The notes beneath the pieces are model-generated. The model saw only the letters and a list, made by a program, of their open reading frames with translations. It was not told where the DNA came from and did no database searches. From an uncultured Lachnospiraceae bacterium (GTDB taxonomy: Bacteria > Bacillota > Clostridia > Oscillospirales > CAG-272), in NCBI GenBank assembly GCA_964416635.1, contig CAYQEY010000001.1:12871-76870 (forward strand): a DNA stretch of 64,000 nucleotides, read 5' to 3'. How positions within the stretch are numbered: position 1 is the stretch's first letter; every line of letters starts with the position of its first letter. The position numbers and the translations under genes were made by a program. This document shows positions 51,799-53,501 of this stretch, one piece after another.

Positions 51799-51859
51799 AA
51801 ACAAAAAACAAGGCGCTCACTGACATACGGCTCTTGCCGAAGTCTATGAACGCCTTTGC
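51799..51859 (-). terminator. Leader terminator (attenuator) of the split-GOGAT operon carrying the GCAAAGGCGT box
   Basis: On the minus-strand RNA, AAGGCG (51856-51851) pairs with CGCCTT (51815-51810). The stem is extended by TTCA/TGAG, GAC/GTC and CGGC/GCCG pairs and followed by GTTTTTTGTTT. It lies between the promoter and the start codon. Confidence 0.65.
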
Positions 51860-51871
51860 TCATCTGCAAGT

Positions 51872-51900
51872 ATTATAACACGAAACTTGCATATTGTCAA
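51872..51900 (-). promoter_or_regulatory. Promoter of the split-GOGAT / GS / ANTAR operon
   Basis: On the minus strand: TTGACA (51900-51895), 17-nt spacer, TATAAT (51877-51872). Confidence 0.7.
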
Positions 51901-51961
51901 GGCATTTTCGGGAAAAATTTCGAATTTTGCAAGATTTTTAAAAAAATTTTTCAAAAACCTC

Positions 51962-51990
51962 TTGACAAATGGTTTTGCATGGTGTATAAT
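51962..51990 (+). promoter_or_regulatory. Promoter of gdhA
   Basis: TTGACA (51962-51967), 17-nt spacer, TGtATAAT-type extended -10 (TATAAT at 51985-51990). Confidence 0.7.
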
Positions 51991-52002
51991 GTGTCGTGTC
52001 AA

Positions 52003-52063
52003 GGGCAAAGGCGTCTTTGAAGGGTAATACCTGTCAGATTTGTCTTTGCCTTTTATGTTTTTT
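52003..52063 (+). terminator. Leader terminator (attenuator) of gdhA carrying the GCAAAGGCGT box
   Basis: GGCAAAG (52004-52010) pairs with CTTTGCC (52044-52050), followed by TTTTATGTTTTTT. It lies between the -10 and the gdhA RBS. Confidence 0.65.
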
Positions 52064-52086
52064 AACATTGAGGAGGGTAAGCTGTT

Positions 52087-53421
52087 ATGTCATATGTTGA
52101 TGAGGTAATAGATCAAGTAATCAAGCAAAATCCGAATGAGCCCGAATTCCATCAGGCAGTAAAAGAGGTTTTGGAGTCCATCAGAGTAGTTGTTGAGCAG
52201 AATGAGGAGCAGTTCAGACGCGATGCGCTTCTTGAGCGTATTTGCAATCCCGAGCGCCAGATCAAGTTCCGCGTGCCGTGGATCGATGATAAAGGTCAGG
52301 TGCACGTCAACACCGGATACCGCGTACAGTTTAACAGTGCGATCGGTCCGTACAAGGGTGGTCTGAGACTTCACCCTTCGGTTAACCTCGGTATCATTAA
52401 ATTCCTCGGTTTCGAGCAGATCTTCAAGAACTCGCTCACGGGTCTTCCCATTGGCGGAGGCAAGGGCGGTTCGGATTTCGACCCCAAAGGCAAATCAGAC
52501 AGAGAGGTTATGGCATTCTGCCAGTCCTTCATGAACGAGCTTTATAAATATATCGGAGCAAACACCGACGTACCCGCAGGTGATATAGGTACGGGCGCAC
52601 GTGAGATCGGATATATGTACGGTCAGTACAAGAGGCTCACAGGTCTTTTCGAAGGCGTTCTTACAGGTAAGGGTATTCCTTACGGCGGTTCTCTTGCGAG
52701 AACCGAAGCAACCGGTTACGGTCTGCTTTATTTGACAGAAGAAATGCTTAAGTGCCACGATGTGGATATCAAGGGAAAGACAGTGGCTGTTTCTGGCGCA
52801 GGAAACGTTGCGATATACGCAATTCAGAAGGCCGAGCAGATGGGCGCAAAGCCTGTTACCTGCTCCGATTCCACCGGTTGGGTATACGATCCCGACGGAA
52901 TCGATGTTGCAGCACTTAAGGAGATCAAGGAAGTCAAGAGACAGAGACTTACCGAATACAAGAAGTACAGACCCAATTCCGAGTACCACGAGGGCAAGGG
53001 TGTATGGACTGTCAAGGTTGATATCGCACTTCCTTGTGCAACTCAGAACGAGCTTGATCTTGATGACGCAAAGGCATTGGTTGCAAACGGCGTAATCGCA
53101 GTTTGCGAGGGAGCAAATATGCCGACTACCGCAGAGGCAACCAAGTACTTCCAGGATAACGGTGTTTACTTCGTTCCCGGAAAGGCAGCAAACGCAGGCG
53201 GAGTAGCAACTTCGGCTCTTGAGATGTCGCAGAACAGCGAACGTCTCTCGTGGAGTTTTGAAAAGGTAGACAGCGAGCTGAAGAATATTATGGTTCGTTT
53301 GTATCATAATGTTGACGATGCGGCAAAGAAATACGGCTTTGAAGGAAACTATGTTGTCGGTGCGAACATTGCGGGCTTTGAGAAGGTCGTCAGCGCGATG
53401 AATGCTCAGGGTATTGTTTAA
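52087..53421 (+). CDS. gdhA: NADP-specific glutamate dehydrogenase
   Basis: [36 protein letters not shown]. Confidence 0.95.
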
Positions 53422-53450
53422 GCTGAATAATAAAGAGTGAATAAGTAAAA

Positions 53451-53501
53451 GGCAAAGGCGTCTTTCTTGTGTAAAAGCAGGGGAGACGCCTATAATATTT
53501 T
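53451..53501 (+). terminator. Hairpin between gdhA and glnN carrying the third GCAAAGGCGT box
   Basis: GGCGTCT (53457-53463) pairs with AGACGCC (53484-53490), followed by TATAATATTTT. The 15 nt GGCAAAGGCGTCTTT (53451-53465) are identical to 52004-52018. Confidence 0.55.

Follow-up and report, generated by a model that had tools for sequence, protein, structure and literature searches.

Introduction

ANTAR proteins are among the most widespread RNA-binding regulators, and both target searches and a 2025 review presume that they act at a two-hairpin site. Canonical targets consist of two hexaloop hairpins placed 5-20 nt apart, the second of which overlaps a terminator (PMC3369931, PMC3369936). 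Such dual-hexaloop targets include the EutV-dependent eut leaders of Enterococcus and Listeria, NasR/nasF and AmiR/amiE; they were defined in Ramesh et al. 2012, and the structure was described in Walshe et al. 2022, NAR 50:2889. Binding sites are defined by an A at loop position 1 and a G at loop position 4 (A1 and G4; PMC3369936; PMC8934654), and these are the bases recognized in solved ANTAR-RNA complexes (PMC8934654). In the EutV-RNA structure both ANTAR domains of the dimer grip one hexaloop, and the same work redefined the minimal binding unit as a single hexaloop, asked whether such sites work in nature, and left the question open (PMC8934654). Here, we report a small RNA hairpin with an ANTAR-type hexaloop that occurs in three leaders of nitrogen-assimilation genes and is probably part of an ANTAR-controlled attenuator. 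It lies in a stretch of 64,000 nucleotides from an uncultured Lachnospiraceae bacterium (contig CAYQEY010000001.1, positions 12,871 to 76,870), hereafter the window.

For nitrogen genes, the closest described system is NitR, an ANTAR protein encoded next to glnA that is reported to antiterminate glutamine synthetase (GS) and glutamate synthase (GOGAT) on nitrogen limitation in Clostridium saccharobutylicum and C. acetobutylicum (PMC6316151, PMC4676874). The C. thermocellum cluster Clo1313_2030-2036 has the order GOGAT-GS-ANTAR (PMC4676874). ANTAR nitrogen regulons were also predicted in Desulfotomaculum, Carboxydothermus, Pelobacter and others (Ramesh 2012, Table S2), and that survey gave one hit only (amt) in C. 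thermocellum. A single hit despite a GOGAT-GS-ANTAR cluster would fit a survey that missed most of the single-hairpin leaders in Clostridia. The NitR study itself (Stutz et al. 2007, Microbiology 153:3081, cited in PMC6316151) reportedly dealt with glnA-nitR and gltAB. AmiR is a pseudo-receiver ANTAR protein that is controlled through sequestration by AmiC.

Results and Discussion

A hexaloop hairpin at three sites

The preliminary description of this DNA had drawn attention to a box, GCAAAGGCGT, at 51850-51859 (-), 52005-52014 (+) and 53452-53461 (+), and to a 15-nt stretch, GGCAAAGGCGTCTTT, that is identical at 52004-52018 and 53451-53465, the copies in front of gdhA and glnN. All of these coordinates and sequences proved correct on re-checking, and the window holds no further copy of the box. 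Three copies are far above chance frequency, with 0.10 +/- 0.30 expected and at least three reached in 0/100 shuffles of the window. Each box provides the closing C-G and G-U pairs and the hexaloop AAAGGC of a hairpin with a stem of 6-8 bp, GC[AAAGGC]GU:

51846..51863, minus strand: putative antiterminator hairpin of the GOGAT leader, AUGAGC[AAAGGC]GUUCAU, 6-bp stem; covariance model (CM) R1 29.2 bits, E 3.9e-6; -4.3 kcal/mol alone

51999..52020, plus strand: putative antiterminator hairpin of the gdhA leader, UCAAGGGC[AAAGGC]GUCUUUGA, 8-bp stem; CM R1 22.7 bits, E 4e-4; -7.7 kcal/mol alone

53448..53465, plus strand: putative antiterminator hairpin between gdhA and glnN, AAAGGC[AAAGGC]GUCUUU; CM R1 30.3 bits, E 1.7e-6; -3.5 kcal/mol alone

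These are the only AAAGGC hexaloop hairpins with a stem of at least 5 bp in the window, and CM R1 likewise finds the three sites only, the next match scoring 14.3 bits (E 0.17). The outer arms of the three stems differ, yet stay complementary (tcaagggc/gtctttga, aaaggc/gtcttt and atgagc/gttcat). All three loops carry A1 and G4, and AAAGGC fits the published ANTAR consensus AAHGRH, also given as AAHGDV (Ramesh 2012, PLoS Genet 8:e1002666, Fig. S2). No other loop is as common in the published alignment of EutV/NasR-type targets, and it is also the loop of the second nasF hairpin (Ramesh 2012, Figs S1, S2). Judged by its sequence and predicted fold, the box forms the apex of a short RNA stem-loop of the kind that ANTAR antiterminators recognize. 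Where the sites had earlier seemed not to fit the ANTAR consensus, and the recognition element had been suspected of being divergent, the loop itself does fit, and the misfit to the two-hairpin model arises because each leader has only one hexaloop hairpin. A tetraloop self-fold of the box (CAAAG-GCGT-CTTTG) was rejected, because the three copies and the relatives show conservation and covariation in the hexaloop register alone.

Conservation and covariation in relatives

For comparison, 80 loci from different Clostridia species were collected via the GOGAT amidotransferase-domain protein. The set includes Oscillospiraceae, Acutalibacteraceae, Agathobaculum desmolans, Lachnospiraceae bacterium 28-4, Acetatifactor and Frisingicoccus, and the closest named relatives are uncultured Oscillospiraceae, Acutalibacteraceae and 'Eubacteriales' metagenome-assembled genomes. 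Conservation in related genomes, on which the earlier proposal depended, is borne out by 254 hairpins of the pattern GC[AANGRY]GT in these loci and the window. Among the 16,697 hexaloop hairpins with a stem of at least 5 bp in the same sequences, AAAGGC is the most frequent loop (139), and 130 of the 139 have the form GC[AAAGGC]GT. Loops seen in relatives include AAAGGC, AATGGC, AAAGAC, AAGGGC, AACGGC and AAAGGT. Positions 1, 2 and 4 are set by the search pattern itself; any base occurs at position 3 (A 113, U 32, G 14 and C 12 among distinct sequences), position 5 is G or A and position 6 is C or U. When A1/G4 hexaloops on stems of at least 5 bp are considered, the variants seen with GC...GT closing pairs all have A at position 2 (A2).

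The stem is conserved as a stem. With the degenerate 10-mer taken in any context, 74% of 315 matches have at least 3 further stem pairs, compared to approximately 5% expected. In a covariation set picked by the downstream terminator complement alone, and hence blind to the 5' arm, stem pairs 3-6 are paired in 100, 99, 98 and 90% of cases, with exchanges of G-C/A-U, A-U/G-C and A-U/U-A. Paired cells amount to 92.9%, versus 76.0 +/- 1.1 in shuffles and 41-53% in slid registers, and double-change cells to 175 versus 82 +/- 7, a number reached in 0/500 shuffles. The closing C-G and G-U pairs are present in 111/111, as imposed by the search pattern. The elements are therefore base-paired stems of 6-8 bp with conserved closing pairs, as in ANTAR-target RNA, and fall into the types AAAGGC/GUCUUU (gdhA, glnN and others), AUGAGC/GUUCAU (GOGAT) and U/CAGAGC/GUUCUA/G (phosphofructokinase, pfk). 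The view that conservation concerns the box and not the stem consequently needs revision, since the outer stem covaries and it is the hexaloop hairpin that is conserved.

Terminators that share the loop

Each leader also forms a long terminator-like hairpin that has the box in its 5' arm:

51799..51861, minus strand: GOGAT intrinsic terminator; 5' arm GAGCAA-GGCGUUCAU (hexaloop plus hairpin 3' arm), 3' arm ...GUGAGCGCCUU, then GUUUUUUGUUU

52001..52063, plus strand: gdhA intrinsic terminator; AAGGGCAAAGGCG pairs with UGUCUUUGCCUU; U-run UUUUAUGUUUUUU; minimum free energy (MFE) -26.7 kcal/mol, z -5.1

53456..53501, plus strand: glnN leader terminator; 15-bp stem AGGCGUCUUUCUUGU / GCAGGGGAGACGCCU; tract AUAAUAUUUU; MFE -24.7 to -27.1 kcal/mol, z -6.3

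The leaders have MFEs of -26.7 (gdhA), -32.8 (GOGAT) and -27.1 kcal/mol (glnN), with z scores against shuffles of -5.1, -5.4 and -6.3; the GOGAT terminator gives -30.6 to -32.8 kcal/mol (z -5.4). A G+C-rich stem with a U tract directly after it is clear for gdhA (UUUUAUGUUUUUU) and GOGAT (GUUUUUUGUUU). The placement of the box in the 5' arm of a terminator hairpin in front of a U-run, as first described, thus holds for all three leaders, with an imperfect tract at glnN. In the glnN leader (53446-53505, +), AUAAUA stands between the terminator stem and the U-run, and the flanking UAAAA and UUUUA can pair around it; a spacer of 6-7 nt likewise precedes the U-run in the glnN leaders of the closest relatives (L005-L009). 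The glnN attenuator may be leakier or may work differently.

In all three leaders the hairpin loop and 3' arm lie inside the 5' arm of the terminator, so that both structures use the same nucleotides. The hairpins alone have -7.7, -4.3 and -3.5 kcal/mol, versus -26.7, -30.6 and -24.7 kcal/mol for the terminators (gdhA, GOGAT and glnN, respectively), and the terminator is favored by more than 12 kcal/mol absent stabilization. Folding with and without the hairpin enforced, a check suggested with the preliminary description, bears this out: the terminator wins by default, and when the hairpin is enforced the terminator shrinks to a short apical stem away from the U tract. Given that the terminator is far more stable, termination is expected to be the default, and the hairpin must be held by something.

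The energetics bear on whether any protein is needed. The leaders might instead be constitutive attenuators, 5' stabilizing hairpins, or small riboswitches or kinetic switches that sense a metabolite or nucleoside triphosphate pools. A 5'-terminal hairpin can stabilize mRNA, and the regulon is rich in glutamine-using and nucleotide-synthesis genes, as with some metabolite-sensing leaders. However, a hairpin of 18-22 nt offers no plausible ligand pocket, and with a terminator ahead by more than 12 kcal/mol, essential assimilation genes would be shut off. Folding also leaves the invariant A1, A2 and G4 unexplained, which are exactly the bases that ANTAR domains read (PMC8934654). We regard a protein-free leader as extremely improbable. 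The hairpin is better explained as one held by a trans-acting factor that competes with the terminator, as originally proposed; computation supports this, and the likeliest factor is the ANTAR protein encoded at 44895-45479.

Covariation ties the two structures together. For 61 gdhA/glnN-type leaders RNAalifold returns the terminator helix and not the small hairpin, and in that helix loop positions 4-6 and the hairpin 3' arm pair with the downstream arm. Loop position 5 pairs with the terminator arm as G-C in 37 leaders, A-U in 14 and G-U in 10, and is broken in 0, and each of the five apical terminator pairs shows 9-27 double changes. In a gapless register analysis of 174 distinct leaders, loop position 3 and its partner in the terminator 3' arm are A-U in 119, U-A in 13, G-C in 8, G-U in 8 and C-G in 6, with 19 mismatches, and loop position 6 pairs as C-G in 144 and U-A in 12. 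The covariation of loop positions 3, 5 and 6 with the terminator 3' arm indicates that hairpin and terminator are mutually exclusive. In these aligned sequences, the same nucleotides are selected as loop in one structure and as stem in the other, which is the signature of a two-state attenuator.

The same data argue against the box being a DNA operator, such as a site for a GlnR/TnrA-like protein on the quasi-palindrome AAAGGCGTCTTT at the transcription start, or a target for a small RNA or another RNA-binding protein. The fixed spacing of 13-16 nt from the -10 and the near-palindromic AAAGGCGTCTTT would suit an operator, and the link between the box and the ANTAR protein comes from sequence comparison. 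However, the palindrome needs the invariant G-U pairs (111/111), which count as mismatches in DNA, the motif lies on the sense strand in every case, and copies without a promoter exist, internal or in tandem (the glnN site in the window; spacings of 57-82 nt). Loop bases moreover covary with the downstream RNA arm. The DNA-operator reading was rejected on these four grounds (G-U pairs, strand specificity, promoter-less copies and downstream-arm covariation). For any other factor, the loop is exactly the ANTAR consensus and an ANTAR gene is present in 44/44 loci, so that this whole group of explanations is very unlikely.

One hairpin rather than two

Like the dual-hexaloop targets, the window leaders have an A1/G4 hexaloop, a C-G closing pair and nucleotides in common with the terminator 5' arm, a cognate ANTAR gene is present in the locus, and nitrogen metabolism genes are controlled. 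Unlike those targets, they have one hairpin, at the extreme 5' end, as the antiterminator, and the tandem arrangement of first and second hairpins (P1 and P2) that characterizes ANTAR-target RNA is not found. The lone hairpin merges the role of P1, which is made first, with that of P2, which overlaps the terminator. Further differences are that the terminator here engulfs the loop itself and not merely a stem arm, and that the second closing pair is an invariant G-U, an invariance imposed by the search pattern. The leaders are also undetected by a dual-hairpin CM and have no match in Rfam 15.

There is little space for a second hairpin upstream. A sigma-70-type promoter whose -10 element stops 13-16 nt ahead of the loop is present in 59/71 GOGAT, 23/36 gdhA and 26/71 glnN leaders; at that spacing the hairpin begins at approximately +1 to +3, leaving no room for an upstream hairpin. 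A second A1/G4 hexaloop on a stem of at least 3 bp is not enriched, either upstream (12/159) or between hairpin and U tract (8/159), where control patterns give 7-26/159. The closest same-strand copies of the hairpin lie at distances of 57-82 nt, each followed by a terminator of its own, which makes them tandem attenuators. Tandem hairpin-terminator pairs before one gene (purC, guaA, glnN or gdhA) are present in many relatives, including L034 (minus strand, ~1380-1453), L054, L059, L076 and L080, which suggests multiplicative attenuation.

A dual-hairpin CM, R2, was built from 28 published dual-hairpin hits and nasF. On the three window leaders it gives 10.8, 9.5 and 6.9 bits (E 1.1-9), which is noise level, and 0 of ~250 leaders from the 80 loci reach E <= 1. 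No Rfam 15 family matches anywhere in the window at gathering thresholds. At E <= 10 the region 51700-53600 returns noise, the best being ctRNA_pT181 with 26.7 bits against a threshold of 56, and this match was rejected as a generic resemblance to a hairpin plus terminator. The covariance scan proposed earlier for recognizing the leaders as ANTAR targets therefore came out negative, with no Rfam 15 family fitting them. In all, the second hexaloop was sought by eye, by pattern statistics and by the dual-hairpin CM, each with a negative outcome.

A canonical target could still be present if its second hairpin were degenerate or cryptic, for example with the apical hairpin of the terminator serving as a P2 that lacks an A1/G4 loop. 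All characterized ANTAR antiterminators use two hairpins (PMC12591593, PMC3369931). In all leaders another small hairpin does form between that of the box and the terminator 3' arm, and in the GOGAT leader of the window the dual model aligns CGGC-AAGA-GCCG as a pseudo-P2. However, this apical loop is 3-12 nt long with neither length nor sequence conserved, it forms equally in the terminator state, and A1/G4 hexaloops in that interval are as rare as the control patterns (8/159 versus 7-26). Together with the noise-level scores of the dual-hairpin CM and the lack of room upstream, these observations make a cryptic P2 improbable. From their sequences, the leaders look as though the single 5'-terminal hairpin serves as the antiterminator.

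The ANTAR protein and its GS-I-like neighbor

44895..45479, minus strand: ANTAR regulator with pseudo-receiver, NitR-like, 194 aa; last gene of the attenuated GOGAT operon

45517..46734, minus strand: GS-I-like protein, 405 aa; Gln-synt_N and Gln-synt_C; NCBIfam GlnA 362, below the cutoff of 429

An ANTAR gene had been placed at the distal end of the GOGAT/GS operon, and the product indeed has an ANTAR domain (PF03861, 58.2 bits against a cutoff of 27.3) at residues 140-190. The Pfam receiver domain scores 25 bits, below its cutoff of 30.2. Through the linker and ANTAR domain the protein aligns with Rv1626 (1s8n, E 2e-6) and EutV (6wsh, E 0.004), and it has the C-terminal three-helix ANTAR domain past a coiled-coil linker. 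In the alignment, Asn59 takes the place of the phospho-acceptor Asp of Rv1626, and 44/45 orthologues have Asn there; across the 45 orthologues the beta-1 site reads S-A-S/A instead of the acidic D-D pair. The protein is not a phosphorylatable response regulator by these features, and no kinase gene is found in the cluster. Asn59, the altered beta-1 site and the lack of a cluster kinase together indicate a pseudo-receiver ANTAR protein, like AmiR in principle. As with AmiR, a receiver-like domain without a functional phospho-acceptor leads us to expect control by a partner rather than a kinase. Unlike for AmiR, no gene for an AmiC/NasS-like binding protein is present here; the conserved neighbor is the GS-I-like protein, a candidate partner only.

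An ANTAR orthologue stands at the distal end of the GOGAT operon in 44/44 loci that are long enough, with identities of 50-86% and one of 29%; relatives listed by a homology search with the ANTAR protein are all at least 63% identical. The GS-I-like gene is directly upstream of the ANTAR gene in 44/45 loci, with the GOGAT genes in the same operon. This is the NitR-type layout, an ANTAR gene directly 3' of a GS gene and GOGAT in the cluster. As in NitR and Clo1313_2030-2036, GS and GOGAT are the presumed targets and the host is an anaerobic member of the Clostridia. The GS-I-like protein could be the sensor partner of the regulator, instead of or besides being an enzyme. The type III GS (glnN) is encoded apart from the GS-I-like gene. 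In a pairwise HMMER alignment only, the Met of EutV that plugs the hexaloop is conserved as M176.

The regulon

In the 80 loci the genes 3' of the hairpin are GOGAT (82), glnN (78) and gdhA (51), plus purC, guaA and phosphofructokinase. A metagenome scan with the 18-mer AAAGGCAAAGGCGTCTTT gave at least 120 contigs. Among the 124 matches listed, the first downstream gene is glnN in 63, gdhA in 5 and GOGAT in 2; the others include purC (~9), CTP synthase (pyrG, 3), asnB (2), purF-like genes (2), gatC and the Na+/glutamate symporter gltS (2). A handful of the listed matches look like chance and have no terminators. Enrichment before nitrogen genes, which the preliminary description had anticipated, is therefore evident, as the copies in relatives and metagenomes lie mostly before glnN, GOGAT and gdhA. 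By these gene assignments, the element is specific to ammonium assimilation and glutamine-dependent biosynthesis. As in the regulons of Ramesh 2012, several attenuators stand before GS, GOGAT, amt and P-II genes of one genome, and the cluster also encodes an ANTAR response regulator; unlike the window leaders, the hits in those regulons were found with, and fit, a two-hairpin model. Unlike for NitR, the regulon here adds gdhA and glnN-amtB/PII, and in relatives purC, purF, guaA, pyrG, asnB, gatC and gltS.

In some relatives pfk lies just 3' of the ANTAR gene and has its own hairpin, U/CAGAGC[AAAGGC]GUUCUA/G (L002 16265, L005 16261, L006 14899 and L070 8075 (+)); the window has no pfk at that position. 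It is possible that this hairpin links the nitrogen regulon to glycolysis.

Proposed mechanism

The hairpin would form first in the nascent RNA, at approximately +1 to +3 for gdhA and GOGAT and in the gdhA-glnN spacer for glnN. With no active ANTAR protein, the stable terminator would form and transcription would stop before the coding region. An active ANTAR dimer would bind the hexaloop hairpin and keep its loop and 3' arm from the terminator, which would be cut to a short apical stem away from the U tract, and the polymerase would read into GOGAT-glnA-ANTAR, gdhA and glnN-amtB. Nitrogen status might be signaled through a protein partner or a small ligand, with the GS-I-like neighbor as the leading candidate and the PII domain as another; such a partner protein or ligand is likely given that there is neither a phospho-acceptor nor a cluster kinase. 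Since the ANTAR gene is last in one attenuated operon, the circuit would be positively autoregulated. By analogy to NitR, the response is probably induction on nitrogen limitation.

We consider it highly likely, from the sequence comparisons, that a single-hexaloop ANTAR switch read by the 44895-45479 protein attenuates GOGAT-glnA-ANTAR, gdhA and glnN-amtB. The earlier proposal that these sites are antitermination targets of a nitrogen regulon is supported as far as computation goes, by the hairpin, the terminator, their mutual exclusivity, conservation, covariation, gene association and protein co-occurrence. We infer that the ANTAR protein binds the hairpins, with the co-occurrence in 44/44 loci as support.

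Several points weigh against this interpretation. All evidence, from the 64-kb window onward, is computational. Antitermination by EutV and NasR needed both hairpins and their spacing in genetic experiments (PMC3369931, PMC3369936, PMC8934654), and the sensitivity of dual-hairpin CM R2 to an independent true positive is unverified. Two or three stem types dominate the outer-stem covariation, so that it represents few independent events, and hairpin and terminator both constrain the stem nucleotides, so that conservation is overstated. Despite its strong stem, the glnN terminator has an imperfect U tract, AUAAUAUUUU. Gathering the loci via GOGAT biases the first regulon count, which the metagenome scan partly corrects. 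In the protein, the Tyr with which EutV stacks on G4 aligns with an invariant His168, and one EutV Arg aligns with Glu (pairwise HMMER alignment only), so details of RNA binding may differ from EutV.

The system is of a known kind, ANTAR/NitR antitermination of nitrogen genes, that lies outside the described RNA family because the dual hairpin is absent, and it is widespread in gut and rumen Clostridia. We also lean somewhat toward a broader proposal, in which a single terminator-overlapping hexaloop is sufficient in vivo, the leaders form a large unmodelled RNA class with a glutamine-centered regulon in gut and rumen Oscillospirales and Lachnospirales, and a non-phosphorylatable ANTAR protein works with a new kind of partner, possibly the GS-like neighbor. 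If true, this would run against the two-hairpin requirement established for EutV, NasR and AmiR, and the regulon would comprise GS, glutamate dehydrogenase, GOGAT and AmtB-PII, with PurF, PurC, GuaA, PyrG, AsnB, GatC and GltS in relatives. A hairpin of 18-22 nt at the 5' terminus, lying within a terminator, seems to make up a whole ANTAR switch, and the window locus with several hundred relatives offers a testable answer to the single-hexaloop question raised by the 2022 EutV-RNA structure. It would explain how ammonium assimilation is coordinated with glutamine-consuming biosynthesis in abundant gut and rumen Clostridia, which to our knowledge lack the classic NtrBC system. GC-AANGRY-GU plus a terminator is a simple pattern with which to annotate the regulon in metagenomes, and such a small element could serve as a synthetic antitermination part.

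Organization of the locus

46754..51775, minus strand: split glutamate synthase genes; GATase_2, Glu_synthase/FMN, Fer4, Pyr_redox_2, GXGXG

51872..51900, minus strand: promoter of the GOGAT-glnA-ANTAR operon, TTGACA-17-TATAAT with a TG extension; 12/12 match to the sigma-70 consensus

51962..51990, plus strand: gdhA promoter, TTGACA-17-TATAAT; 12/12 match to the sigma-70 consensus

52087..53421, plus strand: gdhA, NADP-specific glutamate dehydrogenase; NCBIfam NF006929, 754.8 bits

53531-55627, plus strand: glnN, type III glutamine synthetase; profile matches

55635-57413, plus strand: amtB-PII fusion; profile matches

The GOGAT and gdhA promoters are divergent, and the box starts 14 nt (gdhA) and 12 nt (GOGAT) past the -10, as stated from the outset; in the GOGAT leader the distance from the -10 end to the loop is 14 nt. 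Comparison with the sigma-70 consensus found no convincing promoter before glnN in the window, and the glnN site is thus most simply an internal attenuator read from the gdhA promoter. Transcription probably reaches glnN by read-through from that promoter, glnN not being a separate unit. Of the three transcription units first assumed, the count does not stand, two promoters and one internal attenuator being more likely, whereas the three attenuated sites do. A partial copy of the box at 45490-45497, for which chance had been allowed, is the Shine-Dalgarno sequence of the ANTAR gene (aaaggaggg) and forms no hairpin; it was rejected as a regulatory site.

The 61-bp spacer between the divergent -35 boxes (51901-51961) is extremely A+T-rich, for example tttttaaaaaaatttttcaaaaacc, and could hold UP elements or a common protein-binding site. 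The amtB-PII gene encodes an ammonium transporter with a C-terminal P-II domain (592 aa) and starts 8 nt past the glnN stop. Directly 3' of it is an 89-aa open reading frame (57435-57704, +) with no NCBIfam match. Further downstream, a T-box leader (RF00230) at 57753-57984 (+) scores 81.1 bits (E 3.6e-18), below the gathering score of 93, hence the default scan missed it. It precedes asnB (58021-59604), and purC, purA and purB (59629-63078) come next. The asnB and purC genes of relatives carry an ANTAR-type hexaloop attenuator instead of a T-box.

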